The notes under the pieces: generated by a model
What the model was told of the DNA's origin: nothing
What the model saw: the letters and a program-made list of their open reading frames with translations, nothing else
Databases searched by the model: none
Translations under genes and position numbers: made by a program
Virus record (IMG/VR): IMGVR_UViG_3300047283_000054
Strand: one strand, 5' to 3'
Origin: a virus
Taxonomy: Duplodnaviria; Caudoviricetes
Length of the DNA: 64,000 nt
Part shown: piece by piece, positions 18,548-64,000 of the stretch
Numbering within the stretch: position 1 is the first letter of the stretch
Layout of the letters: every line of letters begins with the position of its first letter

Positions 18548-18558
18548 AAACTTATTTA

Positions 18559-20765: not shown

Positions 20766-20768
20766 CAA

Positions 20769-33922: not shown

Positions 33923-33973
33923 GTAATAGTCTCCTTGTGTGTTAGTATTACACAAATATTTAATCAGAAAACT

Positions 33974-34002
33974 GTGACAGTAATGTGACAATCGTGTGAA
34001 AC
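33974..34002 (-). promoter_or_regulatory. Pho box (three 11-bp-spaced half sites)
   Basis: GTTTCAC-acga-TTGTCAC-atta-CTGTCAC upstream of pstS matches the PhoB CTGTCAT/C-N4 repeat. Confidence 0.8.
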
Positions 34003-34009
34003 CAAAAGA

Positions 34010-34031
34010 AAAGGGCAACTAGTTGCCCTTT
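34010..34031. terminator. Perfect 22-bp palindrome; terminator after tmRNA
   Basis: AAAGGGCAACTAGTTGCCCTTT. Confidence 0.75.
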
Positions 34032-34372: not shown

Positions 34373-34373
34373 C

Positions 34374-37300
34374 TCATAAGTATTTAGTATTAAAATACTT
34401 TTGCAACCAAGGCCAATCATAACTTAAACGTAATTTGTCTAACTCACCATTGACTTGTTCAAAGTATTCTACAGCATCTAATGCACCATTGATACTATAT
34501 TGGGCAAACGGGCCTTCACCTTTAGTCAACCAAGCATCTAGTCTATATTTGCTATCGTCACTAGTACTTGCACGTAGTTTGATTGCTTCTCTAAACGCAG
34601 TACGCCAAGTACTCCATTCGTCTGTATTAAACATTGCTACACCACTATTCATATCAACAACTTCGTGTTCGTTGTCTAATGTGAAGTCTAATCCAGTACC
34701 TTGATTACCTAACACAATCTTCTTATTGTAAGCAATCATAGCTTGGTGGCCGTATACTAATCCATTAACAGGGTTAGTAGCGTGGAAGATGTAATGCTTA
34801 GGTACTTGAAGTCTATCAGGTTGCCAAGAGAAGTCAAATTTATCATTAACACGCAACTTAGCAAATACAGTGAACATCCAAGGTGTGGTACTTGCTTCAG
34901 CTGCCGCATGATAAGCCTGCACACGACCATTGACTCCATCAACTCTAACGACTCTATTATTTAATCCCTTAGTCACTTTTAGCAAGTGTTCATAGTTCTC
35001 GTCAGATCCAGTTTCACCATTACTTAGGAAGACTATATCTAACGGTTTAGATTTAGTTAGAGATTTAGCACGTGAGATGTATGGGTAATCATATAACTCA
35101 TTCTCTACATAATCTTTAGCTTCTTTGGGAACAATTATTCGTGTTGCACCCGTACTTGTAATCAAAATGTTCTTAGTATCAGGTGTCCACAAACTAATAG
35201 GTTCAATATCTTGTATATCTAATCCTTTGTTATCTTCCGTGACAAACGTAGCATAAGGCCAATCAAAATCAGTATGAATATTAGTGACATGGGTATCTTC
35301 TTTCGTAATAATTATAGGTGCGGGTAATCGTTTTACTCTTTGATGTTGATTGTAGTTAACCTTTTCATAGTCTTCCATCATAATCATATCATCAATCAAT
35401 GATTTGAATTTGTTTACATCAATTAAAAATGTGTCTCCAAATTTCTGTTTATCACTAGGGAACACATGTAATTGCTCTCTAGCATATGGATCACATATAT
35501 AGCTGAAGTCAAAATTTTCATAATCACATATACTTGAACAGATCCAAAGATAATGTTCTTTTCTAGTGTCTAATTTTTTTAATATCTCTTTGAATGTTTT
35601 TAGGTAGCTATGCTTATAGTCAACTGTAGTTATAGATTTATTATCAATCTTAGATTTGATAACTTCATTTACATTTGACTTGTTTCCATGATTGATTAAT
35701 ATCACATCATACAATGAACCTTCTGCTTTGGCTCTCTTATCTTTAACAAAGTTAAGCATACTTAAATGTTCAATGATTTTGACATATTTGGTATCTTCAT
35801 TGAATGAGTTCTTGTTCACCAAGTATGTATTACCCCAATGAGTCCATTGACTACCGAACACATGAATCATTCGTTTTTGCCAAGGATTAGGGTTATAGTC
35901 AAAGCTAAACTCAGTATAATCTAATTCACTAGACAATACCCAAAACAGTTCAGTTGTACTTTTAGATGTGCAACGTGATATTGTTTCTACCCATGAATTC
36001 AAATATCTAGTTTTCTGAATAGCAGGAAATTGTAATTTTAGTTTTTCAAATCTATACCTGCTTTCACTATTGCCCTTATCAACAAAGAACATATCACGGT
36101 GTATTATCTTTTGAATAACTTCGTCAGTAGTTTCAACTACAATGTTTTCTCTTGCGGATTCATCATAGTCTAATGTAATTGTTGTTTTAAAGTCAGGTAC
36201 AATGTAAACAGGACCATCAGTACCCCACTCATATCGTGCAGGATCTTTGTTAGGATTAGGTCTCCAAGAGAAGTCAAATGCTTTCAAGTCTAATTCATTA
36301 CGAACCAACCAGTTAGTCATATTCACTTTAGGAGTAGCAATGATAGAGTCTAAGAATTTGTACTCAGTCGCACCCTCAACACGATACATCACAGTGGGTT
36401 CTGTTTCAGCATCATTCCATTTATTACCAAATACATAGATGAAAGGTGGCTCTAATGGATCAGGTCTCCAGCTAAAATCAAACTTAGAAATAGACAACAA
36501 TATTTCCCACTGAGGATCCTTCTCAGTAGATTTTACCATAGCGACAGCATCCTCTATGTATTTGTATTCAGTTGCCCCGGGTACAGTATAAGATACAGTG
36601 GGTTCCATGAAGCAATTGTTCCATTGATTACCCCATACGTATATGTATGGTGGACTGTCAGGGTGTGGTCTCCAACTAAAGTCAAAGTTATCTACTGGGA
36701 TAAGTGTCTCCCAGTTTTCAGTAGTAGGTGCAACATTAGCAGTTACATCATTAATATATTTCTTTTGTGTTGCCCCAGGCACAGTATAGATAACAGTCGG
36801 CTCAGTAACAGCATCAAACCATTGATTACCAAACACGTAGATGAACGGTTCTTCTGTGGTATCTGGATGCCAACTATAGTCAAAATCTTTTACAGGAATT
36901 AATGTTTCCCAATTATCTTTGTTTGATAATGCTTTTGCCTTTGTTACATCAACATATTGTATATCGCTATCTTCTGTGCATCCGACTGCATAGAACTTAG
37001 GACCGCCTGTTCGTTGCCATTGCGTTCCAAATTGATATATCAAAGGTGCGTGGTCTATATCAGGATGCCAACTAAAATCAAAATCAGTTGTATCAATACC
37101 TTCAGGTATTGTCCAATGCATCTTATCTTGTTTGGCTGTTGCTATCTGTGCATCAATATATTTTATTTCGGTTGCACCAGGTACAACATATCTAGGGCCT
37201 CCGGTGCGTGTCCATTGGTCAGGAAATTGATAGATGAATGGTTCTTCCGTCGAATCAGGATGCCAACTAAAATCAAATTTAGATTGGTCTATATTTTTAG

Positions 37301-38441
37301 GTACTTGCCAATTTTCAAATTCTGTACAAACAACTTCTGCTTTTAATGTATCAATATATTTTATATCTGTTGCTCCGAGAACTACATATCTTGGTCCACC
37401 TGTTTTTTGCCATTGTGTACCAAATTGATATATGAACGGTGGGTCATGCGGATTAGGTTCCCAACTAAAGTCAAATTTATTCTGAAACATATTAGTAGGT
37501 ATATCCCAGTTATCCATGCATGGATTACGTTTGACACGTTCTTCCATGTACTTGTATTCAGTGGCACCTTCTACGTTGCGTATAACACTAATCTTATCTT
37601 CAGGTTTGTTCCATTGATTACCCCAAGCATAGATATATGGTGGCGCAGTTGGATCAGGTACCCATGTCATATCAAATGATGACGGGTCTATATCTTCTAA
37701 TGCTTCAAAGTCAGCCGGTCTAGCTGCCAATTTAGGTACAATATTTTCAATGAACTTACGTTCAGTTGCACCTTCTACGTGATACTCTATCGTTGGCATC
37801 ACACTTGCTGGATACTGATTATTGCCAAATACATAAATGTATGGTGGCGCAGTTGGATCAGGTCTCCAAGTGTAGTCAAAATCTGCCGGCTCATATATAA
37901 TATTGAACAAGCGAGGCATTGATAATAATGTAGCCAATGTATCTGTTATATATTTTTTATCAGTAGCTCCCGGTACATGGTATTCAACTGTTGGCATGAT
38001 AGTACCGGGATACCACTTGTTACCCCAGACATAGATATAGGGGGGATCACTTGGGTCTGGGTGCCACTTAAAATCAAATTTATCTTTTTCAATATATTCA
38101 ATTATTTTCCAGTTACTTGTTACTTCATCTTTAAGAGCTATAGGATCAACATCAGCACGATATATTGTTACAGCATCTATATTGGTCGAGCATAACCAAG
38201 TACCACTGTCTTTTTGATAGGGGCTAGGCCATACGTTGTTGTGTTCTTCTGCCCATACATCTTCATCGGGAAGAAAGTCAAAGTCCCAATCCCAATCAAA
38301 ATCTTTATAATTACATTGTTCGTTGATTACCCAAAAATGTTCTGTTGTGCATTGGCGTTTTGCATCAGATAAATCTGTTGCAAATCTTTCTCTAGGGTGA
38401 ACGTTAGGTTTTTCTCCGAAATAAAATACATCTCTTAGCAT
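34374..38441 (-). CDS. 1355-aa tandem-repeat protein with degenerate GT-A-like domains
   Basis: About 10 repeats of FDFSW.P.....P.IY.(F/W)G.QW...P...V.GAT..KY; the C-terminal domain is homologous to 62357-63310. Confidence 0.7.
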   Translation of the reverse strand: MLRDVFYFGEKPNVHPRERFATDLSDAKRQCTTEHFWVINEQCNYKDFDWDWDFDFLPDEDVWAEEHNNVWPSPYQKDSGTWLCSTNIDAVTIYRADVDPIALKDEVTSNWKIIEYIEKDKFDFKWHPDPSDPPYIYVWGNKWYPGTIMPTVEYHVPGATDKKYITDTLATLLSMPRLFNIIYEPADFDYTWRPDPTAPPYIYVFGNNQYPASVMPTIEYHVEGATERKFIENIVPKLAARPADFEALEDIDPSSFDMTWVPDPTAPPYIYAWGNQWNKPEDKISVIRNVEGATEYKYMEERVKRNPCMDNWDIPTNMFQNKFDFSWEPNPHDPPFIYQFGTQWQKTGGPRYVVLGATDIKYIDTLKAEVVCTEFENWQVPKNIDQSKFDFSWHPDSTEEPFIYQFPDQWTRTGGPRYVVPGATEIKYIDAQIATAKQDKMHWTIPEGIDTTDFDFSWHPDIDHAPLIYQFGTQWQRTGGPKFYAVGCTEDSDIQYVDVTKAKALSNKDNWETLIPVKDFDYSWHPDTTEEPFIYVFGNQWFDAVTEPTVIYTVPGATQKKYINDVTANVAPTTENWETLIPVDNFDFSWRPHPDSPPYIYVWGNQWNNCFMEPTVSYTVPGATEYKYIEDAVAMVKSTEKDPQWEILLSISKFDFSWRPDPLEPPFIYVFGNKWNDAETEPTVMYRVEGATEYKFLDSIIATPKVNMTNWLVRNELDLKAFDFSWRPNPNKDPARYEWGTDGPVYIVPDFKTTITLDYDESARENIVVETTDEVIQKIIHRDMFFVDKGNSESRYRFEKLKLQFPAIQKTRYLNSWVETISRCTSKSTTELFWVLSSELDYTEFSFDYNPNPWQKRMIHVFGSQWTHWGNTYLVNKNSFNEDTKYVKIIEHLSMLNFVKDKRAKAEGSLYDVILINHGNKSNVNEVIKSKIDNKSITTVDYKHSYLKTFKEILKKLDTRKEHYLWICSSICDYENFDFSYICDPYAREQLHVFPSDKQKFGDTFLIDVNKFKSLIDDMIMMEDYEKVNYNQHQRVKRLPAPIIITKEDTHVTNIHTDFDWPYATFVTEDNKGLDIQDIEPISLWTPDTKNILITSTGATRIIVPKEAKDYVENELYDYPYISRAKSLTKSKPLDIVFLSNGETGSDENYEHLLKVTKGLNNRVVRVDGVNGRVQAYHAAAEASTTPWMFTVFAKLRVNDKFDFSWQPDRLQVPKHYIFHATNPVNGLVYGHQAMIAYNKKIVLGNQGTGLDFTLDNEHEVVDMNSGVAMFNTDEWSTWRTAFREAIKLRASTSDDSKYRLDAWLTKGEGPFAQYSINGALDAVEYFEQVNGELDKLRLSYDWPWLQKYFNTKYL

Positions 38442-38451
38442 AGATACTTAC

Positions 38452-39945
38452 TTATGATATAACTTTTACATTATACATTAATTCAAAGCGATCCGCATCT
38501 TTTCGGTCATTTACCATAGGCTCACCTCTAACATTTAATGAGGTATTCAACAACATCGGGCAACCGGTTAACACATACCATTTCTCTAATAGTTCTCGTA
38601 TTCCGGAGCCATCGTTTGGAACTGTCTGTACACGACTAGTCCCGTCAGCGTGAACGATAGCAGGAAATAACTGAGTATGCCTACAGCGAGCGATGACTTG
38701 CATATACCTACTATTATCGAAGCCACGAGGCATATCAAAATACATATCAGCATACTCCTCCAAAATGACTGGTGCAAAGGGTCTAAACTTCTGTCTGCGT
38801 TTAATTTCATTTACTTTGTCCTTGATTTCATTTCCTCTTGGGTCTGCAAGTAAGCTTCTATTTCCCAAGGCCCTTGGCCCAAACTCTGCTCGTCCGTTAG
38901 CGACTCCCACAATTTTGTCAGTAAGTAAACAATCAATAATACGATTAGCAGGATAAACCCCACTAATGTCATGGCCAAGAAAAGCATTAGTCCAGTTAAC
39001 ACGTTTACCATAACCGAGACAGGCCGCTCCAAGACTAGAACCAGCATCGCCAGGATTAGGCATAATCCAAATGTTGTCATAAAATTCTCCTAACAATCTA
39101 TTTGCTGAACAGTTTAATGCTACACCACCACCATATACTAAGTTCTTACTACCACCTAGCATTCTTGCTTTTGATATCACTGATTTAATTAATATTTCTA
39201 CTACATTTTGTGTTGAACTAGCAACATCCATTTCATTTTTATCAACTAAAAATTTATCAGGGGTTCCTATGTGTAAATTTTCTGCAAAACGAATATCCTC
39301 TATGTCTGTAATTAATCCTGACATTACATCTGTGTGCTTAGGATTACCGTAAGCAGCCATACCCATAAGAATATATTCTTCATCCAATGGTCGTAAGCCT
39401 ACATGCTGTGTCATTGCTGAATAAAATAATCCAATACTGTGTGGATACTTTTGTCCCCATAACTTTTTGTACTTTGCTAAACCATTTTTATCATACCAAG
39501 CATTGTAAATGCTAATAGTATCAAACTCTCCGATAGCGTCAATGACAACTACAGTAGCATCATTGTAGGGGCTTGTTTGGAAGCCTGCAGCCGCATGACT
39601 TAAATGATGATTATGTGTATGAACTTTGCCCCCACGTCCATCTTGTAGTTTATGTAATAACCCCGTACCTATAATATCTTTAACAAACAAATTAGATAGT
39701 GAGGGTTTTTCGCCTGAACGAACTTGTCGTAGAAACTTCATCCAAGGTCGTTCATAGTAGTGAATTTCTATGTCACGTGAATTAGTGTATGACAATATAT
39801 CTTCAACTATACCCATACATAGATGTTTGTCATGTTTATCTTTAGAGTATCGTTCACTATGTCCGGCAAACAGTATGTTACCATTATTATCTATAACACT
39901 TAGTGCGGCATCGTGAAATCCTGAGGATATGCCTATATAGTTCAT
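38452..39945 (-). CDS. Carbamoyltransferase (NodU/CmcH/TobZ family)
   Basis: GFHDAA, HHLSHAA, DAIGE, MGMAAYG, GGVALN, GDAG, EFGPRALGNRS, FRPFAP, LLNTSLN. Confidence 0.93.
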   Translation of the reverse strand: MNYIGISSGFHDAALSVIDNNGNILFAGHSERYSKDKHDKHLCMGIVEDILSYTNSRDIEIHYYERPWMKFLRQVRSGEKPSLSNLFVKDIIGTGLLHKLQDGRGGKVHTHNHHLSHAAAGFQTSPYNDATVVVIDAIGEFDTISIYNAWYDKNGLAKYKKLWGQKYPHSIGLFYSAMTQHVGLRPLDEEYILMGMAAYGNPKHTDVMSGLITDIEDIRFAENLHIGTPDKFLVDKNEMDVASSTQNVVEILIKSVISKARMLGGSKNLVYGGGVALNCSANRLLGEFYDNIWIMPNPGDAGSSLGAACLGYGKRVNWTNAFLGHDISGVYPANRIIDCLLTDKIVGVANGRAEFGPRALGNRSLLADPRGNEIKDKVNEIKRRQKFRPFAPVILEEYADMYFDMPRGFDNSRYMQVIARCRHTQLFPAIVHADGTSRVQTVPNDGSGIRELLEKWYVLTGCPMLLNTSLNVRGEPMVNDRKDADRFELMYNVKVIS

Positions 39946-40766
39946 TTGATAAATTCCTTGGCAGCATTTACCCATTGCTTATGATGTATTGGGCCAGGAT
40001 GTTTTTTATCTCTTGCTAAATCTGATTCTGCTTGTTCTTTGCTTTCTGAAGCCCACAACGGCAAGATAATACTATTTTTTAGTTTCAAACTTTTAAGTAA
40101 GTTGTATGTTTCAGCGTCCCATGAAGAAAGATATAGTTTTACGTTTCTATTTTTTGCAACATAGTCTATTAAATACATGTCGTTTTTAAAAGTTTTGATT
40201 TGTTCATCATTGGGAATATACTTATATAACATTTCAACATCTACCCCGTAGCTGTACGACAATTCACTTTTTAACCCTGGTATTAAAGATAAGTGAGTTA
40301 ACATATCTTTTTTCATATGCTTTATTCCAATTTGCATTCTATTATAACTAGGTAACAAAAATACAGCATGTTTCATTTGTATGTGTTTGGACGTGATTAA
40401 AAATAACTCTGAAATAGATTTGGCTGACGCACCAGACACACCAAAATTCAAAGATGTTAATTTCAATTCAGTTGCTAATACATTATGCCAAAGATAACTA
40501 TCAGGCAAACCTAACCCAGCAGTAAAACTGCACCCAAATGCGCCCATATCAATACTGTCAGGTATATCATCTGAGAATCGAAATCCTAATTTATTAAAAT
40601 AGTAATCAAAGTTGGGACCTTGCCATGTACAAGCATGTTCAATTTCCCCACGTGATGCAAAATCAACTCTGTATGATTCGTCAGTCCACTTCAAGTATTC
40701 TGTTTTAGTATACCCGATTACATCATCCAATGATTCAGAATCTAATAAGTTAACCAGTTGTATCAT
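39942..40766 (-). CDS. SGNH/GDSL-like protein
   Basis: FGCSFTAG block I, NFGVSGAS block II, C-terminal RDKKHP (DxxH). Confidence 0.6.
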   Translation of the reverse strand: MIQLVNLLDSESLDDVIGYTKTEYLKWTDESYRVDFASRGEIEHACTWQGPNFDYYFNKLGFRFSDDIPDSIDMGAFGCSFTAGLGLPDSYLWHNVLATELKLTSLNFGVSGASAKSISELFLITSKHIQMKHAVFLLPSYNRMQIGIKHMKKDMLTHLSLIPGLKSELSYSYGVDVEMLYKYIPNDEQIKTFKNDMYLIDYVAKNRNVKLYLSSWDAETYNLLKSLKLKNSIILPLWASESKEQAESDLARDKKHPGPIHHKQWVNAAKEFIK

Positions 40767-40867
40767 TTATAGATAAATGGATCACGTTTACGTAGTTCTT
40801 TAATACGCTTGCGGTAGCGTATCTCTGCTCTAATCGTATGATATAAATTTTTAATCCACTTGAACAT
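40763..40867 (-). CDS. Small basic peptide, 34 aa (MFKWIKNLYHTIRAEIRYRKRIKELRKRDPFIYK)
   Basis: Manually found; SD GAGGAG upstream; overlaps the rSAM stop upstream and forms an ATGA overlap with the next gene. Confidence 0.7.
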   Translation of the reverse strand: MFKWIKNLYHTIRAEIRYRKRIKELRKRDPFIYK

Positions 40868-42158
40868 AATCTGGCTCCTCTTTGCTAATAGTATTTATTA
40901 TATCTACAATCTGAGGAAATATTGCTTTCCAGTCTCTATTCCTACGTTTATCTATGTCAGCTAGGAAGTTAGCAAAATCATTAACTTCCTTCTTGTTTGC
41001 AGGAGTAGTTAATAGTTGTTGCTGTATTCCCATTAAATGAGTTTGTAATTTTTCTTTTTCAATAGGGTCGCTATAATTTTCTAATGCTTTGATTGGTGCA
41101 TCAATGAAATGTGCTAAATATTTTCCAAAGTTGTATGGATTGAATGTTGAGGGTCTAACTACAGTGTTCCAATTAATACCAACAGTAGATTTAATTTTGC
41201 GCCATTCATTTGTTTTTTCTATCAACTGGTGTAAGGTGGGCAACGTCAATGCAGTAAGTGTTGCATGAATCAACACACCTACACCCGGAGCATTTAACAA
41301 CGTGGTCATGTTTTGTTCCCATTCAGTTAATATTAATCCATCACGGACATATTCAATCTCAGGACCCCAGCAATCAATACTACATACAAACTCCATGCGT
41401 TTAAGTTTACCTTGATCAATCAAGTTTTGCACACGTTGAATCTTTGCTTTAAACTTTTCAGGATCATGTTTCAAATTACTAAATGAACGGTATACTAAAT
41501 TTGGTCTGGGGTGTCTATCAAAGAAATCTAAACATTGTTCAAATTCTTTTTGATATAGAGGTTCCCCACCTAATACTTGCAATATTTGTACGTGTTCGCT
41601 ATTCTTCTCCATCCATTCCCAAAATTTTTCTTTGTATAATTCATACTTAGAATCAGGGCGCCATGTGCTATAATCTTGGTTAAACTCACTTGGTCCAAAT
41701 TTACGAACTTCTTGTTCAATCTGACTGCTAAAGCCAGGTGTGCAATACACACATGATTGATTGCATACATTATTGAAGTAAACTTCAAGCAATGTGGGAC
41801 TAACACTTAATGGAATATTATCAAACTCATATGCACGTTGCACGTATCCTTCAAACTCAGGTGGCAACAATTCAATCGATTCATTTACAAATCCTGTCCT
41901 ATCGCTTTTACCGCCGGTCTTTTCAACATCTCTGCAATATTCACATCCGTTACCTGGCCATTCCCCACTTGCCATTTTTTCTCTATCAGCGAGCTTACCG
42001 TGATGATTATGAAAATCCATAAAGTTATCCTCAGTCAATCTCCAATGACGACCTCGATGACAACTTGATGTAGTGCCTCTACTTAAAAATAAGGTGCTCC
42101 ATGCCCATTTGTATAAGCAAGCGGCATCATTTTGTATAGGAAATGTTTTTTTTATCAT
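40851..42158 (-). CDS. Radical SAM protein (subfamily A, N-terminal Cys domain)
   Basis: CLYKW...SSCH...CEYC; CNQSCVYC; GGEP. Confidence 0.9.
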   Translation of the reverse strand: MIKKTFPIQNDAACLYKWAWSTLFLSRGTTSSCHRGRHWRLTEDNFMDFHNHHGKLADREKMASGEWPGNGCEYCRDVEKTGGKSDRTGFVNESIELLPPEFEGYVQRAYEFDNIPLSVSPTLLEVYFNNVCNQSCVYCTPGFSSQIEQEVRKFGPSEFNQDYSTWRPDSKYELYKEKFWEWMEKNSEHVQILQVLGGEPLYQKEFEQCLDFFDRHPRPNLVYRSFSNLKHDPEKFKAKIQRVQNLIDQGKLKRMEFVCSIDCWGPEIEYVRDGLILTEWEQNMTTLLNAPGVGVLIHATLTALTLPTLHQLIEKTNEWRKIKSTVGINWNTVVRPSTFNPYNFGKYLAHFIDAPIKALENYSDPIEKEKLQTHLMGIQQQLLTTPANKKEVNDFANFLADIDKRRNRDWKAIFPQIVDIINTISKEEPDYVQVD

Positions 42159-42166
42159 ACAGCTAT

Positions 42167-42925
42167 TTATAGAAGGCGTTGTATGAGGGGGATTATTTCT
42201 CTTTCAAAATAAATCAAATGGCCTTTATCATTTACATGATGATCGGGTGCATAACAAGTTTTATTAAAATTATAATCTCCTTTCCCAGAAGAATTATATC
42301 CAGAAAAATCGTATTTAGAGATATGTGGTATTTGAAATTTACCAATGCATAAAAGTTTTTTTAGAAAAGGTGTATTATATGACTGGGTAGGGAGAGACCA
42401 TATAAATTTTAAATTATTTACTGTTGCAAATCCATATGTTGCTAATAATGCAGTCATTGACAGATTATATCCTATGTCATCGTTAAACAAATGTCTTATA
42501 TACATTTTTTTAGCTTTATTATATGGAATTTCATTTTCCATTTGAGAATGATGATCCCATCCCATTACCCAAGGTACTATAACCTCAGGTTTAACTCCTA
42601 AAGCAACTTCTATCCTTGATGGAAAGGTTCCATTAAATATAACAATATCATCTGCACTTAGTGGATGTTCACTATGATATTCTATTAAGTTACGAAACAT
42701 TCCTTGACTACAATTTGCAGGTATTCCTAAATTTATTACTTCTATATTATTAAATTGATGTTGTAACAACGATGCCCAGCAATATGAACTAGGAATATTT
42801 TGCATAAATGGAGTTTCATCCCCTATGAATGTTTTAGTATCATGGTCATAGTAATATTCACGGTCTGAACAACCGTGCCCAAAAGTATAACTATCTCCTA
42901 ATACTATTACTTTATGTTTCTGCAT
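42167..42925 (-). CDS. SGNH/GDSL-like protein
   Basis: LGDSYTFG, INLGIPA, C-terminal PDHHVN. Confidence 0.6.
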   Translation of the reverse strand: MQKHKVIVLGDSYTFGHGCSDREYYYDHDTKTFIGDETPFMQNIPSSYCWASLLQHQFNNIEVINLGIPANCSQGMFRNLIEYHSEHPLSADDIVIFNGTFPSRIEVALGVKPEVIVPWVMGWDHHSQMENEIPYNKAKKMYIRHLFNDDIGYNLSMTALLATYGFATVNNLKFIWSLPTQSYNTPFLKKLLCIGKFQIPHISKYDFSGYNSSGKGDYNFNKTCYAPDHHVNDKGHLIYFEREIIPLIQRLL

Positions 42926-49869: not shown

Positions 49870-49871
49870 TA

Positions 49872-55467: not shown

Positions 55468-56710
55468 TTATGTACCCTTTCATGTTGTTGTGTTCTGGAA
55501 AATAATCTAAAAAATCTTTTCCTCTAATTTTATCAAGTATCCTATTTTTTTTGAATGAGTCTGGATTAATAATATTACTGGATGCTGTCATCATAAAAGA
55601 TTTTATATTTTTCATATTGTTTATTACGTCAGTTGCTCCGGGCATACTATTAGTATCATATTGTTTCATATATGTAATAAACTCATCAATTACCATTGAT
55701 ATTTCTTCTTTTTTAAAGTCTGGCAATGATTGCAAAGAGAATTCTCCTGAATCTTCTAAACACCAAATAGTCGTATTGCCACCAAAAGAAAGGCGTTCGT
55801 TTAAAAGAATTTTAACTAACTCTATATAACTGTAAATATTTACCCAAGATATTACGCTATGGATAGAATATTGTACTTTACTTCCGGGTAGGGCAAAACT
55901 ACTATTTTCTTTAATTTTTTTTATGTTGTTAAATAATTCTTCCCAATTAGTTCCGTCTCTCCAATACTCTGCTCGACGACCTTCAGCATCAATACTCATC
56001 TGAACATGAACCCCTTTAAAATGTTTCCAATAATCAAATACTGAATTATTTTTATATGATAGTTTACTTGTGTTGGTAGAATATATAAGACTAACATTCT
56101 TTGCAGTGTTAGAATCAACAAAATATTTCAAAATATCCCAATGTTCTTCTTGCATCATAGGCTCACCACCGGCAAAATAAATATGCTTTACGTGTTCATA
56201 ATGTTTTTCTACTTCGGAGATAATGTTTTTATTATGATAAAGACTCTTATTAGATATTTGGTAATAGGATTGCAACTCAGGATTTTTAATATTTTCAACT
56301 GCAACACTACTACTAAACATGGGGTTGCAGGATCTACATTTAAAATTGCATAGATTATTAAATCTTATATCTAAATATGTTAATTTAAAATTATTAAGAG
56401 AGCCATCGTCATTGGTTATAGATTTCATTTCTTCAACGGGTGCAGTCATTCTAAGAGTAGAAGTTTGTCGCATTGATTTAAAACCCATATCTTCTTTTTT
56501 ATAACAATTAGAACACAATTCATTCTTTACGTCTGATAGCATATCTAAACGTAGTTGTTTCATTTTATCTGAGTTCCATGCTTTTTCTAAAGTTATTTCT
56601 CCATAATTACCTATGGGTTTACCTATACAGCATGGAGCTATTTTACCATTTGGTCCTACATAAATATGTGACCAAGGTAGTGGGCAGTAGGCAGAATTGA
56701 TATCACTCAT
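55460..56710 (-). CDS. Radical SAM protein (subfamily B)
   Basis: YCPLPW...GKIAPCC...CSNC; CNFKCRSC; AGGEP. Confidence 0.9.
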   Translation of the reverse strand: MSDINSAYCPLPWSHIYVGPNGKIAPCCIGKPIGNYGEITLEKAWNSDKMKQLRLDMLSDVKNELCSNCYKKEDMGFKSMRQTSTLRMTAPVEEMKSITNDDGSLNNFKLTYLDIRFNNLCNFKCRSCNPMFSSSVAVENIKNPELQSYYQISNKSLYHNKNIISEVEKHYEHVKHIYFAGGEPMMQEEHWDILKYFVDSNTAKNVSLIYSTNTSKLSYKNNSVFDYWKHFKGVHVQMSIDAEGRRAEYWRDGTNWEELFNNIKKIKENSSFALPGSKVQYSIHSVISWVNIYSYIELVKILLNERLSFGGNTTIWCLEDSGEFSLQSLPDFKKEEISMVIDEFITYMKQYDTNSMPGATDVINNMKNIKSFMMTASSNIINPDSFKKNRILDKIRGKDFLDYFPEHNNMKGYINE

Positions 56711-58110
56711 TGTATATTATCCCACCATGTTAATAATTTAGGGTTTTGACTATATATGTTACGCATTGTGACTTTTTCATCACCGCGAATTTTTTCTAAA
56801 TGTTCAACCCAACGTTTGCCATTCAATCTTGCAGTTTTATACTTATCAGGCCATTCTTCTTCATGCGTTTTGCGGCTGTCTTTTAATGCCTGTAAATTGC
56901 CAATAAAACTACGTTGTTTCCAAGTAGCACGTGATTTGCAATATAAAAGTATATCATCTACCATTTCATTTAGTATTTCACGTGGCCAACTGGTTGGACT
57001 CCACATGATATCTGGATGAAATGCAAATGTAATCTTTGTAATAATTTCAACATCTAACTCAATGCTCAAATCAAACAACTCTTTTAATGAGAACATTCCC
57101 GGGGCTGTAATAGTTAAGTCTAACTTCATTTTGTCTTTGCCACCGGGCAATGCCAATCCTTGTTTAAAATTTTCTAACCATTTGTCCCATTTGATTCCAG
57201 TACGAATGTATTCTACAATATCACCTGTACCATCAATACTTGCACACATCATCCAATCTTTATAGTGTGGTAGATAGTCATATAAGTTTTTCTGACCAAA
57301 TTGAACACGACTTAAATTGCTATTATAACGCATATAACAATTCTTAGCAGAACCATTTTTTAACATTTCTTCTAATGTCCACCAATGCACATCATACATC
57401 AATGGTTCTCCACCAACCCAATACATTTCTTCAACAATACCGCGACTTACTGCATCACGAAACTCTGGTTCAACTACAGTTTGTTGAAAGTCTTGCATCG
57501 CAGATTTAATTTCAGGAATCATAAAAGGTTGATTTTTAGGAGTCCACATGTTATTAATCTTTTTTTCAGTTTCCCATGTTGAACTCAATTGTTCACCACA
57601 CATGCGACACTTAAAGTTACATAGATTGCTGAAACGGTAGTCAAAACTTATTGGCTCCATTGAAGTAAATCCAGTATCGTCTGTGGTATCAAATGCTTGT
57701 TGAATTTTATCTTTAAACAATACACCAGTGAACCATCCACGATAGCTTTCACCCTCCATCAATAAGTTTTTATTACACACATCACATTGAGGTATCTCTT
57801 CTCCTCGCATTAGTTTTACACGAATATCTTTCATGTACTCACTATTCCAATGTTCTTTTAAACTTATAGGTTGATAGTCATCTAATGCTGTTTTGCTTTC
57901 AGTTACAGTACCATACTTTGAATCGTTACTACTATCAATGTATTGCTTCTGGAAAGAATGTTCTTCACGTGATGCACAACACATCCTACGTTCGCTTTGC
58001 GGGCTAATGTAAGTATGTGTCCACGGTGCCATACAAAATACTTTGTTTGGACTGTCAGGGTGGGGTTTTGCATCTGTACCCCATATTGGTATTATTTTAT
58101 TAGTATCCAT
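56707..58110 (-). CDS. Radical SAM protein (subfamily B)
   Basis: FCMAPW...MCC...CDVC; CNFKCRMC; VGGEP. Confidence 0.9.
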   Translation of the reverse strand: MDTNKIIPIWGTDAKPHPDSPNKVFCMAPWTHTYISPQSERRMCCASREEHSFQKQYIDSSNDSKYGTVTESKTALDDYQPISLKEHWNSEYMKDIRVKLMRGEEIPQCDVCNKNLLMEGESYRGWFTGVLFKDKIQQAFDTTDDTGFTSMEPISFDYRFSNLCNFKCRMCGEQLSSTWETEKKINNMWTPKNQPFMIPEIKSAMQDFQQTVVEPEFRDAVSRGIVEEMYWVGGEPLMYDVHWWTLEEMLKNGSAKNCYMRYNSNLSRVQFGQKNLYDYLPHYKDWMMCASIDGTGDIVEYIRTGIKWDKWLENFKQGLALPGGKDKMKLDLTITAPGMFSLKELFDLSIELDVEIITKITFAFHPDIMWSPTSWPREILNEMVDDILLYCKSRATWKQRSFIGNLQALKDSRKTHEEEWPDKYKTARLNGKRWVEHLEKIRGDEKVTMRNIYSQNPKLLTWWDNIQ

Positions 58111-59260
58111 ATTCTTTTGCTAATTCTTGGTATTCAGGAAACACATCTATAAATGATTGATTTCTACGGAGATCAACTTCTTTGAGTGACTTAAAGGCTA
58201 ACGGTAGTAAGAGTGTTTTATCGGCTGAATTCATATAATCAATTATATATTTACATTTAGAAGTTGTACTTAGTAGAGGAATACTTTCTAAATATTCTTT
58301 TGCTTTTTTCTTTATGTTTGCTGGTAGATTTTGAATCGAGAATTTGGGTTCCCACATTGCATTAAAGTTAAATTCAAAATTACCGTTATTTATTTTTTTA
58401 ATCTCATCTAATAATTCACCAATTCTAAATAAAGTAGGCCAAGCTAAAGTGATTATATAAAGAATATCTACGTTATTTGATTTATTTTTTATATCCCTAA
58501 TATTATTCGCAATAGTATCCCAATCGGCACCTGATCCGGGGCGCCAATAATCAACTGCTGAACCAGAAACGTCTAAACTTACTCTATATAAAATTTTATT
58601 AAAATGCTTCCATTTTTCAGTAATATGTGTTCCCTTAAAGGTGATGTTACTGCCATTACTATAATATAATAGGTCAATCTTTTTGTTGTTAGCAATAAGA
58701 TGGTCTAAAAACTCCCAATGCTGCCAATGTAACATTGGTTCGCCTCCGCTAAAAGTAACAGCTTCTAACTCATCGGTGTATTGTTTAATTTCATTTAACA
58801 CAAAATCTTCTGTAGGGCCGGCGAATTTTAATATAGGGCCATTGTATCTACCGTATGTTTTTTCTTCACTTGCTATTGCAGAACTTACACTACTATAGCA
58901 TATCCTACATTTGCAATTGCATAAGTTAGAAAATCGAACTTCAACGTGTTGTATTTTTGTTTTTTCGTAAATACTTTTATCAGGAAATCTTTGTAAAATT
59001 CCCGAGCGCATTGAATGAAATCCAATATCCTCGTATTTATAGCATCGCTCATTGCAATATCCTGTAGTCCTAACTTCATTTATCATATCAGTTTTGATTT
59101 GTGATAGTGGTTTAGAATTTAGATATTCTGTTACGGAAACTGCGGACACTAACGGATTAAGCGAACACGGCCCCATTCTATTCGTCATATCATAATATAA
59201 TGAATTGAAGGGATAGGGGCACTTAACTGTTTGCGTATGATCCGTAAGATACTCACTCAT
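58100..59260 (-). CDS. Radical SAM protein (subfamily B-like)
   Basis: KCPYPF...GPC...CNERC; CNCKCRIC; SGGEP. Confidence 0.9.
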   Translation of the reverse strand: MSEYLTDHTQTVKCPYPFNSLYYDMTNRMGPCSLNPLVSAVSVTEYLNSKPLSQIKTDMINEVRTTGYCNERCYKYEDIGFHSMRSGILQRFPDKSIYEKTKIQHVEVRFSNLCNCKCRICYSSVSSAIASEEKTYGRYNGPILKFAGPTEDFVLNEIKQYTDELEAVTFSGGEPMLHWQHWEFLDHLIANNKKIDLLYYSNGSNITFKGTHITEKWKHFNKILYRVSLDVSGSAVDYWRPGSGADWDTIANNIRDIKNKSNNVDILYIITLAWPTLFRIGELLDEIKKINNGNFEFNFNAMWEPKFSIQNLPANIKKKAKEYLESIPLLSTTSKCKYIIDYMNSADKTLLLPLAFKSLKEVDLRRNQSFIDVFPEYQELAKEYGY

Positions 59261-60783
59261 TGTAAATCTGGGTTGACAAACACATCTTTACTTGGATCCT
59301 CTGGTGGATGATCTGGTATTAAATCAACACCCTGACGATAATTTTGTGTGTTAATTTCCTCTGCAGTGGGTAGCTCTGTTTGAATACTATCATAGAATGC
59401 GACAAACTCTGGTGGGAAAGTATTACGGAAATTTTTACCACGACGGACATCATACTGGGCATAGAACTGTTTGAAGTCTCTACGATTCTGTTCAATGTCT
59501 TTAACATTCTTGTGCGGTGTCTTAATAACGTCAAGGTAATCAATCAATCGTTGAGTCTGTTCTCGCTCAATACTCATAAGCATTTGTTTACCATCAGTAG
59601 TACGGAAATCCATAGCAATTTGATTATCTAACCATACTTGCAATTGGTCTTTATACTTTTGACGAATCTCTGTTGGTAACATAGCACAAGATTGAAAGCT
59701 AGGGAAACGCAATATGTTTAAGCTCATTGTAGGATAAACTGTATTATGAATCTTTTTGAATTCCATCATCTGATCCATGAATTGAACAATACTTGCCAAA
59801 CATAAACTATTGATAGTCATCATCATGTGAGTCTTTTTGATGTTGCCTTCAGTATGTAATCTACCTAAGTTATGAATCCATTTGTTCCAATCGAATCCAT
59901 CACGAATATATTCAGCATGAGCACCAAACGCTTCACAACTTGTGTATACTTCCATATATGGAACAAAGTGACTATACTCAATCAACTTGTCCATAATCTC
60001 ATCTTTAGGAACTAAGTTACTATTAATTGCATAACGCAACACTTTGCCATCTGGACGATTAGTAGCACGTTCTTGGTTGTTACGGAACCATTCAAACAAC
60101 TTCCATACGCCCGGGGCCATTAATGGCTCACCACCTGTAATGCGAATTTCTTCTAAGTTGTCTGCAAGACCATCTTCCCACCAACGCCAGAACGCTTGAC
60201 TGTATGGGTTGATTTCATCTGGTAATGGTTTAGCATGGTCAGCTTCGTTAATAAAGTGACTACGTGCGTCACCATCGATATTACGATAAGGACCAAACTT
60301 ATGAATATCTTTAACCCATGTTGTACTGAAACTTGGGTTGCAATAACTACAAGCAAAGTTACATGTACGGTCAAAAGAGATTTCTAATGTTTTTAACATT
60401 GTATTCTCTTGCCAATCTGCTTTAGCAGTATGTAGGATATGTTCTTCTTCAAACACAGCAGTTTTATAAACACGGTCACTCATGTTATCACGACCAATAT
60501 CTTCAATCTTCCAGCAGTATTCACACTCTTGCGGACGTTTACCTTCTTGCATTAACTTACGCATATACTTCTTATGCGGAGTATTGTGAATTGCGGATGG
60601 ATTAGTGAGTAACTCTGCCGCATCAATTTGATGACCCAATGGGTGGTGACAACTTGTTGTTTGTCCGTTGCCTAACCAGATAGTAGCGTTAAGCCATTTA
60701 GCGGCACAATAACTGTCGCTAATAGGATCGATAAGTCTTGCTTTATATTGTGCGAATGATTCTTCGTGTTTCTTGCCTGCCAT
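59257..60783 (-). CDS. Radical SAM protein (subfamily A)
   Basis: YCAAKW...SCHHP...IHNT...CEYCW; CNFACSYC; TGGEP. Confidence 0.9.
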   Translation of the reverse strand: MAGKKHEESFAQYKARLIDPISDSYCAAKWLNATIWLGNGQTTSCHHPLGHQIDAAELLTNPSAIHNTPHKKYMRKLMQEGKRPQECEYCWKIEDIGRDNMSDRVYKTAVFEEEHILHTAKADWQENTMLKTLEISFDRTCNFACSYCNPSFSTTWVKDIHKFGPYRNIDGDARSHFINEADHAKPLPDEINPYSQAFWRWWEDGLADNLEEIRITGGEPLMAPGVWKLFEWFRNNQERATNRPDGKVLRYAINSNLVPKDEIMDKLIEYSHFVPYMEVYTSCEAFGAHAEYIRDGFDWNKWIHNLGRLHTEGNIKKTHMMMTINSLCLASIVQFMDQMMEFKKIHNTVYPTMSLNILRFPSFQSCAMLPTEIRQKYKDQLQVWLDNQIAMDFRTTDGKQMLMSIEREQTQRLIDYLDVIKTPHKNVKDIEQNRRDFKQFYAQYDVRRGKNFRNTFPPEFVAFYDSIQTELPTAEEINTQNYRQGVDLIPDHPPEDPSKDVFVNPDLQ

Positions 60784-60791
60784 TTTATTCC

Positions 60792-62360
60792 TTAATGTTT
60801 AGTGTGCGATTTGATACATTCTCTCCAGTAACTCTTTAGTTCCGGAAACGTTTCCATAAAATTCGTTTGCCTGCGTCTATCATATTCAGTGATGAACATG
60901 TAGAAGTTCTTCTTATTTAGTAATAGTTGCTCTTGGGGTAGAGATTCTTTCATTATAGCAAGGTCTCGCTTGATTTTCAATAGCTCATATGGTTTAAATC
61001 CCTCAAATGTTTCCAAATAGTCGTCACCCTGTACATTATCTTCCATGTACTTTAAGCAACGTTCTACTTCATCGATACCATATTGTCCTGCATTTTGAAT
61101 ACTGAACCAAGGAGGGTATCTTAGTATTGGAATGTCAAAGAATACACGTTGGTATTTCTTTTGGGTATAGACTTTGTGAACAATGTCGTTCTCTTTTTCT
61201 GTTTCTGTTTGTTCTGGTGCAATCTCAAATTCAACTTGACTACGACCACCAAACTCTGCTCTTAACTCTAATACCATTTCTAAGAACTTATGTAAGCTAG
61301 GAATAGACATGATGTTAAACGTATTAATAAAGCTAACAGTACTATACTTTGTTTCACGTAAAAAGGTTCTTACATTATTAAGCATACGTTCAAACTCTAA
61401 GCCAGTACGCATATATTCAGCTTGTTCACCGAATCCATCTAATGATACAAATAACCAAAAGTGTTTGAATCCTTTATCTACATACCAATGATTGCCACTG
61501 AACTCATTAAAGTTTTCTTTATCTTCGTATGTACGTAGTTCTTCAATTGCTTTAACTTTCTCAATAAACTTGTCAAACAACTTCTGGTCGGGAGGACACA
61601 TATTGCTTGTGATAGATAACTCAAGTTGGCCGTGAGGATTCTCATTCACGTAGTCAAGTACTTTGAATGTGTTCTTGTCCATGAGTGGCTCACCACCTGT
61701 CATTCTGAATACACGTAGTTTGCGATAGATTTCAGGAAACCATTGCCAGAATGCTTCAACATAAGGATTGTCTTTGTTTGCAACCTTAAGTGGCATCATC
61801 CCTTTTTGTTCTAATGCCTCTAAGTTATTATGTATCATTCCGGTTAATTGATAACCACCGTGCTTCTTAACTTCTTCTTCCCAACTACTGGAAAGATGTG
61901 GACTACAATACATACATTTAAAGTTACATGCTTGATTGAAATTGACTTCTACGTATCGAGGGACAACATCATAGTCAAATTTATTTTGAGTAACTTCTTC
62001 AAACGTAGGTGCATTCCACCACTCACTACTGCGATAGTGTCTATCACTCATATGACCTTTAGGATCATCACTTATAGCATCTTCTACTTTCCAGCAGTAA
62101 CTACAACCTTCTGGTCGTTTGCCTTCAAGCATTTGTTTACGTTCGTGTATTTTGATGGGAGTATTATGTAAAGCACTAGGTTGTAATTTTAATAAGTCCA
62201 AGGGGATTTTGTGTGTGGGTGGGTGGTAACAACTCTGTGTCAATCCACTAGGTAAGTGAATTGATACTTGTTGCCATTTAGCAAGACACAAAGATGGGCT
62301 GACCGCATTTAAGCGGTCACGCATATCACGGGCAAACTGGTCGTACTCGCCGCTCATCAC
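60792..62360 (-). CDS. Radical SAM protein (subfamily A)
   Basis: LCLAKW...SCYHP...LHNT...CSYCW; CNFKCMYC; TGGEP. Confidence 0.9.
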   Translation of the reverse strand: MMSGEYDQFARDMRDRLNAVSPSLCLAKWQQVSIHLPSGLTQSCYHPPTHKIPLDLLKLQPSALHNTPIKIHERKQMLEGKRPEGCSYCWKVEDAISDDPKGHMSDRHYRSSEWWNAPTFEEVTQNKFDYDVVPRYVEVNFNQACNFKCMYCSPHLSSSWEEEVKKHGGYQLTGMIHNNLEALEQKGMMPLKVANKDNPYVEAFWQWFPEIYRKLRVFRMTGGEPLMDKNTFKVLDYVNENPHGQLELSITSNMCPPDQKLFDKFIEKVKAIEELRTYEDKENFNEFSGNHWYVDKGFKHFWLFVSLDGFGEQAEYMRTGLEFERMLNNVRTFLRETKYSTVSFINTFNIMSIPSLHKFLEMVLELRAEFGGRSQVEFEIAPEQTETEKENDIVHKVYTQKKYQRVFFDIPILRYPPWFSIQNAGQYGIDEVERCLKYMEDNVQGDDYLETFEGFKPYELLKIKRDLAIMKESLPQEQLLLNKKNFYMFITEYDRRRQTNFMETFPELKSYWRECIKSHTKH

Positions 62361-63310
62361 CAGCCCTGAATCTGACGAATAACTTCCATCTCTGTTACCA
62401 GTGGGCCACGATTGTATTTGTCTGCACCATAGTGACGTTTAAAGAATTTACTTTGTAAGCCATCTAATGTGGCCATCGGTAGTCCTAGTTTATTATTCAA
62501 TGCGGCTCCTAGTAATGCTGATTCACGCACAGGATCTCTATTCACGTGTTCTTCCCACAACGTGATGTAGTTATCAAACCATTGAACATTGGCGTGATCC
62601 CATTCAGTAAGCATAGTCATGTATGTACCAAGACGGGCACCATATATAGCCCATTCACCGTTCTCAACATCCATACCAACATTATGCCATATCGTTAAGT
62701 TATCTAAGTTACGACTTGCTACTGTTTCTTTAAATTGATCCACAGTAGGACGAGCACCTCTATCTAAACTCATCTTAACACCTTCACGAAAACCTGCACG
62801 CCAAGCTTGAAATGGTGTCATATTTGGATATGTAGTTGAATAGCAATCCCACATAGCCCAATATAAGTTATCATCCCCGCCCATACAGAAGTCAGCAATA
62901 CGTGATACATCACCGTCTTTTTGATGTTCATGTGTTTTCATATTAGCAACATATTCTTTAGTCCAACTGCTCATGCCACCATTACCATAACGCAATCCGT
63001 TAATGTTATTGATAGCTTTCCAACGAAACTGTGCTTGTCTAAACTTTTCGTCTTTGTCAGTAAAGTCTAATTGAATGTTGAAGAAACTTTCTTCAGGCAT
63101 GTTGTCGCCGTCAATTAGAATGAAGCGTTCTGTGTCACTCGCTTCACCGGCGGCTTTGTGTGCCGCATCACTGCCCTTAACATTGTCAACACGCTTTGCC
63201 CAAGGCACCATGTGTTTAACTTTAAGCCAAAATTCTTCTTTCTGTGGTTCATCATAGCTTAGATAAATGCAATCTAAGTCTGCTACATCAATAATATCAT
63301 TCGAGTTCAT
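62357..63310 (-). CDS. Putative GT-A-fold glycosyltransferase
   Basis: DCIYLSYDEP...VKGSDAAHKAA...FILIDGDN (DxD), NGLRYGNGG, WRAGFRE. Confidence 0.55.
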   Translation of the reverse strand: MNSNDIIDVADLDCIYLSYDEPQKEEFWLKVKHMVPWAKRVDNVKGSDAAHKAAGEASDTERFILIDGDNMPEESFFNIQLDFTDKDEKFRQAQFRWKAINNINGLRYGNGGMSSWTKEYVANMKTHEHQKDGDVSRIADFCMGGDDNLYWAMWDCYSTTYPNMTPFQAWRAGFREGVKMSLDRGARPTVDQFKETVASRNLDNLTIWHNVGMDVENGEWAIYGARLGTYMTMLTEWDHANVQWFDNYITLWEEHVNRDPVRESALLGAALNNKLGLPMATLDGLQSKFFKRHYGADKYNRGPLVTEMEVIRQIQGW

Positions 63311-63632
63311 ATGTTGTTAATTTCCAATTAATAGTTTTACCTTTGTAGGTTTTATCTACTATAATACTAATATCTTCTTCAGCACAAGCAATACCATCTT
63401 CCTTACTAGGCATAAGCTTTGATACAACTGCACTTGCAACTACAGTAGAAATTTTCCCGTCAATGACTCTAACGTCCGGTCTACCTATAGCATATGTTGT
63501 TGCATCAATTACGATGTAGTTACCTTCAGGCTTCTCACAACTGTAGAAAAGCACTTTACCTTTATCGTCATAGTAAAGTCTGAATTCAGGTTTGATGATA
63601 GCTGGAGCTTCCCAGAGTATTACATGTTCCAT
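63297..63632 (-). CDS. Hypothetical protein
   Basis: 111-aa ORF; EFRLYYD. Confidence 0.7.
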   Translation of the reverse strand: MEHVILWEAPAIIKPEFRLYYDDKGKVLFYSCEKPEGNYIVIDATTYAIGRPDVRVIDGKISTVVASAVVSKLMPSKEDGIACAEEDISIIVDKTYKGKTINWKLTTYELE

Positions 63633-64000
63633 TTATATTTCTCTATTAGTTTATCACTAAATGACTTTATATGATAGTGAAATGGATATTCTTGTACGTA
63701 TGTGTTCACCTTAATTGCATCGGTGGTACATTCGTATACAAGAGTATCAGTCCAATTTTCAGTAAATGTTCCGGTAATAAATTGCTTCATATGAGTCATT
63801 GACAATTCATTAAAATTAGGTAGTGTAGTTTTTTCTACTCCAATAATATGACTTGCAATAGCGTATACCCAATCAGTAGTTGCTTCTTCTGTTGGATTAC
63901 ATTTTAATATTGCTTTATATTCTTCCCAATTCTCAAACACATTTCTGACAATACCAAAGAATTGTTCTGCTGTCTCAGACTTTTTAAAATAAGTAATGGC
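63620..64000 (-). CDS. Partial gene (5' end outside window), possibly glycosyltransferase-like
   Basis: Frame is open to the window edge (AITYFKKSETAEQFF...); C-terminal PFHYHIK. Confidence 0.5.
   Translation of the reverse strand, partial: AITYFKKSETAEQFFGIVRNVFENWEEYKAILKCNPTEEATTDWVYAIASHIIGVEKTTLPNFNELSMTHMKQFITGTFTENWTDTLVYECTTDAIKVNTYVQEYPFHYHIKSFSDKLIEKYKWNM

Follow-up and report, generated by a model that had tools for sequence, protein, structure and literature searches.

A late-type jumbo phage operon with an ordered array of radical SAM genes and a candidate carbamoyl relay

The radical SAM array

We analysed a 64,000-nt stretch (hereafter, the window) of the virus record IMGVR_UViG_3300047283_000054, from an aquatic jumbo phage of ~350 kb, and studied the part from 34374 to 64000, where genes for radical S-adenosylmethionine (rSAM) enzymes lie in tandem with glycosyltransferase-like and carbamoyltransferase genes. 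Six-frame translation recovers 15 minus-strand open reading frames (ORFs) of 384-522 amino acids that carry CxxxCxxC between 40851 and 62360; in shuffled copies of these 15, the mean number of motif-bearing proteins is 0.047. Further CxxxCxxC genes at 5185, 18559 and 19794 bring the window to 18, in agreement with the initial annotation of this DNA. The array is part of an operon of ~30 kb directly behind tail genes, in which all gaps measure -19 to +14 nt (using the nearest ATG), consistent with the proposed translational coupling on one strand, the minus strand. The operon begins beyond the window; context outside the window was taken from relatives, and 15 clusters from relatives were stitched for synteny.

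Membership of the family NF033640 (NCBIfam, N_Twi_rSAM), defined by a whole-protein score of at least 170 bits, is reached by 14 cassette proteins and by the product of 18559-19797, with scores of 178-352 bits, and is not reached by 43650-44822 (52 bits) or by the genes at 5185 and 19794. Against known rSAM equivalogs (MoaA, QueE, PqqE, viperin and SPASM maturases) all scores are at most 56 bits, with cut-offs of 131-850, and the rSAMs are therefore not known cofactor-biosynthesis equivalogs, an identity that the initial annotation had listed as a challenge to its reading.

From the operon head along the minus strand, the NF033640 members are r1 (60792-62360), which has an N-terminal twitch domain and a relative in ORF349 of Ralstonia phage RsoM2USA (35%); r2 (59257-60783), the ortholog of RsoM2USA ORF202 (50%); r3 (58100-59260), an optional paralog missing from most close relatives and without a close ortholog in the set of relatives compared; r4 (56707-58110); r5 (55460-56710), which is optional and evolves faster; r6 (53598-54824); r7 (52315-53601); r8 (51170-52324), whose nearest paralog is r10 (43%); r9 (49872-51173), which was modelled; r10 (48667-49869); r11 (47361-48677); r12 (46075-47368); r13 (44822-46075); and r15 (40851-42158). 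The product of r14 (43650-44822, minus strand), which lies outside the family, has CxxxCxxC at residue 22 and an extra cysteine in its C-terminal half. The frameshift noticed at first reading is real: r12 starts at 47368 and, compared with four orthologs, has lost 35 nt near 47315; owing to this deletion the downstream frame lacks the first twitch cysteine. Because the rest of the gene is still under purifying selection (ratio of non-synonymous to synonymous substitution rates, dN/dS, 0.02-0.06), the lesion is either recent or an assembly error.

The paralogs are 20-45% identical to each other and the orthologs 58-97%. Syntenic orthologs in supported clades exist for 14 of the rSAMs, with dN/dS of 0.02-0.26 (mostly <0.1); the tree was made by a quick method whose deep joins are unsure, and only its ortholog clades are used here. 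Given the diverged paralogs, the supported clades and the low dN/dS, the array is old and functionally split rather than recently amplified. Catalytic motifs are intact in all 14 NF033640 copies. Across cassette genes dN/dS is 0.02-0.28, so that selection is purifying, with no value near 1 of the kind that the initial annotation had named as a sign of relaxed constraint.

An AlphaFold2 (AF2) model of r9 (predicted local distance difference test (pLDDT) score, 94) places the twitch domain ahead of the rSAM barrel. The twitch residues C14, C32, C75 and C78, the core residues C129, C133 and C136, and a GGE motif are invariant in 81 sequences. The best PDB sequence match of the twitch is the twitch of BtrN, with the four cysteines aligned (E ~4e-7 for the domain), and the best sequence matches of the core are TigE and SkfB. 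For the whole fold the best Z score, 12.8, is shared by BlsE, a sugar-nucleoside enzyme, and a peptide maturase, and because of this tie the substrate cannot be read from structure alone; the fold searches singled out no one rSAM subclass. Distant homologs of N-terminal-twitch rSAMs (20-25% identity) are present in GenBank in the cultured, schizotequatro-like Vibrio phages KVP40, K566 and K567; in K566 and K567 they occur at four places.

A carbamoyltransferase and its peptide companion

The predicted NodU/TobZ-type carbamoyltransferase (38452-39945, minus strand) matches Pfam PF02543 and PF16861 and phrog_1601, and its true ATG at 39945 overlaps the stop codon of SGNH-like protein A. The three SGNH-like proteins reported at the outset are all present on the minus strand and keep Ser and His: protein A (39942-40766) has Ser80 in GCSF and His256 in DKKH; protein B (42167-42925) has Ser12 in GDSY, a C-terminal His and weak matches to Lipase_GDSL_2 and DUF6071; and protein C (42907-43653) has Ser9 in GDSF and His199.

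A basic microprotein of 34 amino acids (40763-40867, minus strand), also listed at the outset, ends in DPFIYK, has a dN/dS of 0.01-0.04 and is a candidate soluble tyrosine carbamoyl shuttle. The initial annotation missed that this peptide belongs with the carbamoyltransferase: a short ORF ending in DPFIY[KR] occurs at most 1.6 kb upstream of the carbamoyltransferase gene in 30/30 phage loci (some redundant), and the C-terminal tail, with its invariant DPFIY, is the only invariant part. RsoM2USA has an unannotated 36-amino-acid ORF between ORF201 and ORF200 (L102:14168-14275, plus strand) whose middle differs and whose tail, DPFIYK, is retained. On bacterial genome contigs we counted a comparable microprotein at 26 of 70 carbamoyltransferase loci. 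Eleven of the 26 are of a soluble PFIY type, several lying between an SGNH-like gene and the carbamoyltransferase gene on large contigs; the other 15 are membrane-anchored and end in PF[IL]YxxF, and the four of these that were tested all match DUF5989. The phage peptide has no Pfam match to DUF5989.

In DltX and PatA, FxYxxF is a tyrosine acyl shuttle that hands acyl groups to an SGNH serine (PMC12148441). As the DPFIY tail accompanies the carbamoyltransferase and mirrors DUF5989/DltX-type tyrosine shuttles, the analogy suggests that peptide and carbamoyltransferase form a soluble relay that would carry carbamoyl groups to the SGNH proteins. As in the Dlt and Pat systems, an SGNH partner is found here in which the catalytic Ser and His are kept; strict membership of that class fails, because the peptide ends in DPFIY[KR] with no FxYxxF and there is no membrane-bound O-acyltransferase (MBOAT) or other membrane donor. 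A predicted complex of carbamoyltransferase and peptide reached a median of 0.30 against a mark of 0.32 and is used as evidence neither way.

Fixed anchors, a variable middle and a late-type motif

The operon opens with three GT-A-like glycosyltransferase (GT) genes. The first two encode GT8/GT77-like proteins, the second of which (~257 amino acids) is cut by the window end, leaving its 3' part at 63620-64000 (minus strand); the product is 94% to the L001 ortholog and homologous to the upstream F8, which is linked at 0.96 to Nucleotid_trans/GT8 clusters in Atlas. A conserved 111-amino-acid protein follows (63297-63632, minus strand), a fixed head member in nearly all 80 loci with dN/dS of 0.09-0.16. 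The fixed left anchor is a 317-amino-acid GT-A-fold GT-like protein (62357-63310, minus strand), the DxD protein of the initial annotation, with its DxD at D67-G-D69; both aspartates are at least 90% conserved in 80 sequences. Its AF2 model (pLDDT 93) has a best VIA Z of 9.4 to B4GALNT1 (root-mean-square deviation 3.2, 144 aligned), and its top Foldseek matches are GT-A enzymes, including a capsid GT of PBCV-1. A PDB sequence search with this protein gave a weak GmaR match only, and PDB sequence searches with GT8-like and GT10-like alignments gave nothing.

The fixed right anchor is the giant repeat protein of 1355 amino acids (34374-38441, minus strand), present as first described, with ~10 repeats of ~66 amino acids at 36162-38129; relatives have 6-17 motif copies in 1234-2014 amino acids. 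Its C-terminal domain (34377-35054) is of the same family as the 317-amino-acid GT. Because the domain lacks DxD, a non-catalytic role is suggested, and the giant protein is probably a scaffold or sugar binder. Most of its repeats contain P[FYL]IY, resembling the PFIY tail of the peptide, probably as a beta-strand coincidence. The annotated short-chain dehydrogenase/reductase (SDR) could not be confirmed: the 232-amino-acid protein at 54769-55467 (minus strand) is at most SDR-like, with a Gly-rich N-terminal motif and YxxxK at 149, and has no Pfam or PDB match. Its gene co-occurs with r5 in two relatives. Pfam and PHROGs returned no significant match for the GT, giant, SDR-like or peptide genes.

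In IMG/VR, 394 stretches carry relatives of the 317-amino-acid GT gene, among them near-complete genomes of 335-364 kb; its sole GenBank phage match is RsoM2USA (344 kb), a distantly Rak2-like phage (PMC8504454). This anchor gene forms at least 8,000 clusters at 90% identity, and the pathway is therefore abundant in aquatic viromes. Across the 15 stitched clusters the flanks are fixed and the middle varies: between the GT head and the giant GT-like protein lie 7-24 kb with 1-15 rSAMs per phage (1 to 16 NF033640 matches per record). The gene order of the window is kept in five relatives. Gains and losses of rSAM paralogs go along with those of GT10-like, epimerase and SGNH genes, and the structural genes stay constant. 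RsoM2USA carries a minimal, two-rSAM version, its genes all annotated as 'hypothetical'. In one relative (L089, G014 1-20000) a second cassette elsewhere in the genome holds eight further rSAMs and is headed by a 528-amino-acid two-domain GT paralog. Other cassettes (L092, L091 and L095) encode rSAMs of 640-750 amino acids that appear to be B12-dependent, together with amidinotransferase-like and UDP-glucose-dehydrogenase-like genes (N-termini judged by eye).

GT10-like genes, epimerases and other enzymes lie within the cassettes of other phages, and in the window phage the GT10-like and epimerase genes sit outside it. Two GT10-like proteins of 432 and 436 amino acids with a TEK motif (2587-5188, plus strand) are convergent with rSAM rC (5185-6210, minus strand), which is not NF033640; their link to GT10 (0.78-0.79) is a lead only, and homologs occur inside the cassette in other phages. 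A satellite locus (18559-22967, minus strand) encodes a nucleoside diphosphate (NDP)-sugar epimerase/dehydratase (21999-22967), a DegT aminotransferase (20769-21830) and the rSAMs rB (19794-20768) and rA (18559-19797), of which rA is NF033640 and rB is not; other phages have rA- and rB-like genes and other epimerases inside the cassette.

In relatives, the cassette is preceded by genes for the baseplate wedge, for a very large structural protein and for virion proteins rich in Ser/Thr, by a 101-amino-acid gene, and then by the two GT8-like genes, the 111-amino-acid gene and the 317-amino-acid GT. Some of these upstream virion structural proteins are 23-30% Ser+Thr. A Ser/Thr-rich structural protein of 6291 amino acids just upstream of the operon (L081:5877 to L002:4752) is a candidate glycan acceptor.

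In Rak2-like phages, ATAAATA has been predicted as the late motif, and it marks structural genes there (PMC5259590). In the intergenic space ahead of the operon head, the T4-like late-promoter sequence TAAATA occurs at 79/79 loci, compared with 2.6% of random windows, and it stands before the structural gene F5 at 78/79; it also precedes the terminase gene, whereas sigma70 sites are found at the neighbouring AAA and vWA genes. When the operon head was scanned for generic sigma70 sites, the result was at chance level. Within the operon, the T4 late-promoter-like motif TATAAATA precedes r15 (42164-42171, minus strand), with the motif at 6/6 orthologous sites and overlapping the upstream stop codon. 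RsoM2USA has relocated a block of SGNH, rSAM, peptide and carbamoyltransferase genes ~90 kb from its tail genes, and this block is headed by TATAAATA; the late motif is also carried by its genes 356 and 361, confirmed in the virion by mass spectrometry. On these motifs, the operon is most likely under a late-type promoter and expressed late.

Related rSAM arrays also occur in bacteria. A Bdellovibrionales chromosomal contig from a metagenome-assembled genome (MAG; L211-L212, contig C80, ~36.8-70 kb) with housekeeping genes has ~15 related rSAMs around a cytidylyltransferase, NeuB and a carbamoyltransferase-DUF5989-SGNH block, with membrane proteins adjacent. Because this array sits with NeuA/NeuB-type genes, it gives independent support for sugar chemistry; phage-bacterium exchange of the array is possible. 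Three further 'bacterial' MAG arrays, labelled Rickettsiales, Verrucomicrobiales and Haliscomenobacter (L215-L216, L217 and L218-L219), look like mis-binned phage DNA: two have the same tail-GT head, the third is short and lacks housekeeping genes, and none was counted as cellular. Many 'bacterial' NF033640 records may for this reason be viral.

The rest of the window includes a T4-like terminase and a gp9/10-like protein. A circularly permuted transfer messenger RNA (tmRNA; 33987-34399, minus strand; tag ANDEHFALAA) directly after the giant gene and ahead of pstS passes Rfam RF04321 and beta_tmRNA RF01850, and this match to a betaproteobacterial family suggests a betaproteobacterial host. The pstS gene (32915-34018, minus strand; PF12849; start probably ~33922), for a phosphate-binding protein, is optional among relatives, and the PstS search yielded no host taxon. 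SAM methyltransferases are encoded at 15217-15906 (minus strand; PF13489) and 30907-31500 (minus strand; PF13578), the former having a late-type motif, and homologs within some cassettes. A lipoprotein-like protein (25181-26425, minus strand) has a GH113 glycoside hydrolase match (E 1e-6).

A proposed virion glycan, its alternatives and known systems

We favour the reading that the operon makes a virion glycan late, in the cytoplasm, and tailors it by radical chemistry, to which we give somewhat better than even chances; virion proteins are the most likely acceptor. Judging from their families, the epimerase/dehydratase and DegT enzymes would supply amino- or deoxy-NDP-sugars, which the GT-A-like and GT10-like proteins would transfer, probably onto the Ser/Thr-rich tail and baseplate proteins encoded upstream. 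The SAM cluster of each NF033640 paralog would abstract one specific C-H of the NDP-sugar or attached glycan, and the Cys-ligated N-terminal twitch cluster would take the electron, as in BtrN, to give a keto sugar; related epimerisation, dehydration or decarboxylation are alternative outcomes, with different paralogs serving different positions. By analogy, the carbamoyltransferase would load a carbamoyl group on the tyrosine of the 34-residue peptide, and the three SGNH proteins would pass it via their serine to chosen hydroxyls. The giant protein, lacking DxD, would organise or bind the product, and swapping cassette genes would alter the 'glyco-type' of the particle. A bolder version, that a widespread group of jumbo phages makes its own particle glycan, diversifies it with a swappable array of rSAMs acting on one position each and carbamoylates it via a soluble tyrosine-shuttle microprotein with no membrane enzyme, is more tentative, and we consider it possible rather than probable.

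The initial annotation had proposed a dedicated, paralog-expanded glycan pathway acting on the virion or host surface, with DNA as an alternative target. Support for this is partial overall: the three GT-A-like head genes, the GT10-like genes, the NDP-sugar epimerase, DegT, the BtrN-like twitch with four cysteines and the bacterial array with NeuA/NeuB-type genes are a glycan-tailoring context that supports its first part well. Clustered GTs and NDP-sugar enzymes with lineage-specific content, which characterise virion-glycosylation clusters, are also found here. As to the target, the late motif, the lack of membrane proteins and the finding of no base-activating enzyme favour the virion over the host surface or DNA.

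Several observations weigh against this reading. The rSAM fold matches are family-wide, and sugar substrates are deduced from neighbouring genes. Among the structural matches of the 317-amino-acid GT, which are modest (Z up to 9.4), are also nucleotidyltransferases, and as to the carbamoyl relay, about one-third of carbamoyltransferase loci lack an SGNH motif in the flank examined. The motifs inside the operon, ahead of r15 and of the giant gene, overlap stop codons, which makes them weaker evidence, and the GT head gene of RsoM2USA has no motif directly in front. Late expression would also suit post-replicative DNA modification, as with Mu mom. No virion glycan has been reported for RsoM2USA, whose paper did not test for one.

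Among the alternatives, remodelling of the host envelope is unlikely, although it keeps more standing than the others. The enzymes would then alter O-antigen or lipopolysaccharide intermediates on the cytoplasmic face to block superinfection, and lipid-linked precursors can indeed be substrates of soluble GTs. The Bdellovibrionales array adjoins membrane proteins, and such a role has been proposed for GT-rich islands beside tail genes with variable radical SAM cassettes (PMC7029224). However, the cassette has no transmembrane protein, flippase or ligase-like gene, and the peptide lacks the membrane anchor of DUF5989. The promoter is of late type, whereas exclusion would presumably bring the greatest benefit early in infection. 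None of the cassette proteins has a hydrophobic segment >1.5, and hence none has a membrane segment, which also disfavours serotype conversion of the Gtr type.

Barely less plausible is a reading in which the glycan part holds and the rSAMs have amino-acid residues in virion proteins as substrates, through anSME-like oxidation or cross-links. The fold neighbours anSME, CteB and SkfB (Z ~12) and the core matches to TigE and SkfB fit this account, but scores against peptide-maturase equivalogs are far under cut-off, the rSAMs come and go in step with the GT10-like, epimerase and SGNH genes against a constant set of structural genes, and the bacterial array has no virion.

We consider it improbable that the sugars and carbamoyl groups end on phage DNA bases. 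The satellite locus adjoins thyA, and late modification has precedent. Viral GTs are also known to glycosylate DNA (summarised in PMC12619734). Yet each of five near-complete relatives encodes a single canonical ThyA and lacks a second hydroxymethylase of thymidylate-synthase-like type, no TET/JBP match rises above cut-off, and the cassette lies in the structural rather than the replication module; a search for HMUDK (hmU kinase) was run without a positive control.

Equally improbable is a pathway for a peptide made by ribosomes and then modified post-translationally (RiPP) or a small molecule, with the 34-residue peptide or a diffusible aminocyclitol-like metabolite as rSAM substrate. A short conserved peptide does lie within an rSAM operon, and BtrN, DegT and TobZ-type enzymes are found in aminoglycoside pathways. 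A RiPP precursor should track its maturase, but this peptide follows the carbamoyltransferase (30/30) and not the number of rSAMs (1 to 15), it is missing from some rSAM-rich cassettes (G008, G023 and G014), and in bacteria it is retained between SGNH and carbamoyltransferase genes in genomes with no NF033640. Only its tail is invariant, and no protease or exporter was seen in the cassette; a role as RiPP precursor is improbable for this peptide. That the copies arose by neutral or decaying tandem duplication and have no distinct functions, a view to which one frameshifted copy and the variable copy number might point, is very hard to reconcile with diverged paralogs that mostly fall in their own supported ortholog clades and keep their order, with dN/dS mostly <0.1 and with intact catalytic motifs.

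If the bolder version is true, this would be the first function for NF033640, and the DltX/PatA shuttle principle would extend to carbamoyl groups; if the virion is glycosylated, phage glycobiology would gain radical chemistry and a serotype-like variable island. For a large family of no known reaction, the locus supplies 14 diverged, selected paralogs with partner enzymes, and the two-rSAM version in RsoM2USA makes product, target and carbamoyl shuttle directly testable in a cultured phage. The initial annotation overlooked two points: the family is catalogued as NF033640, and the cassette is widespread, with variable content. Virus-encoded, lineage-variable glycosylation clusters and rSAM cassettes in pelagimyophage GT islands are already known. 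The searchable literature has no description of a late operon that combines an ordered rSAM array with a candidate soluble carbamoyl shuttle; our searches, in which subscription papers were largely outside coverage, found no paper devoted to NF033640 or to this phage operon.

The auxiliary cluster of BtrN, a dehydrogenase that oxidises an aminocyclitol, is Cys4-ligated (PMC10337720). At the sequence level the twitch of the window proteins aligns with its four cysteines, and the rSAM core motifs are intact. However, the twitch of BtrN is C-terminal rather than N-terminal, the window proteins are ~150 amino acids longer, and BtrN is a single enzyme of an antibiotic pathway. The N-terminal twitch thus lowers membership of the BtrN class, not the claim that the proteins may work like BtrN.

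The carbamoyl genes, with a microprotein of invariant C-terminal F-I-Y beside SGNH proteins that have the catalytic Ser/His, resemble the DltB-DltX-DltD and PatA-PatB systems (PMC12148441), and DUF5989/SxtK beside SxtI-type carbamoyltransferases, where bacterial DUF5989 peptides end in PF[IL]YxxF. They differ in having no MBOAT and no membrane segment, in a tail of FIYK rather than FxYxxF, and in that the donor would be the carbamoyltransferase. Viral GTs and NDP-sugar enzymes are likewise clustered, with content that differs between lineages, in the clade-specific fibril glycosylation clusters of Megavirinae (PMC10117803) and in mycobacteriophage virion glycosylation (Freeman 2023, as described in PMC12619734). 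In both the glycan is demonstrably on the particle, whereas the present evidence is of gene content, synteny, selection, folds and motifs, the promoter motif among them; the parts of these accounts available to us describe no radical SAM array or carbamoyl relay at the centre.

The pelagimyophage host-recognition cluster (PMC7029224) is also a hypervariable island beside tail genes; it holds GT8-type genes, and its radical SAM cassettes vary. It belongs to another lineage and was read as host O-chain modification, without analysis of its rSAMs; in the locus described here the GT anchors are fixed, rSAMs number up to 15 and a late-promoter motif is present. The closest likeness is to NF033640 itself, with 15 window proteins above the family cut-off and a twitch that is N-terminal with the rSAM core after it. 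What distinguishes the locus is that 14 such paralogs form an ordered, selected array in one viral operon.

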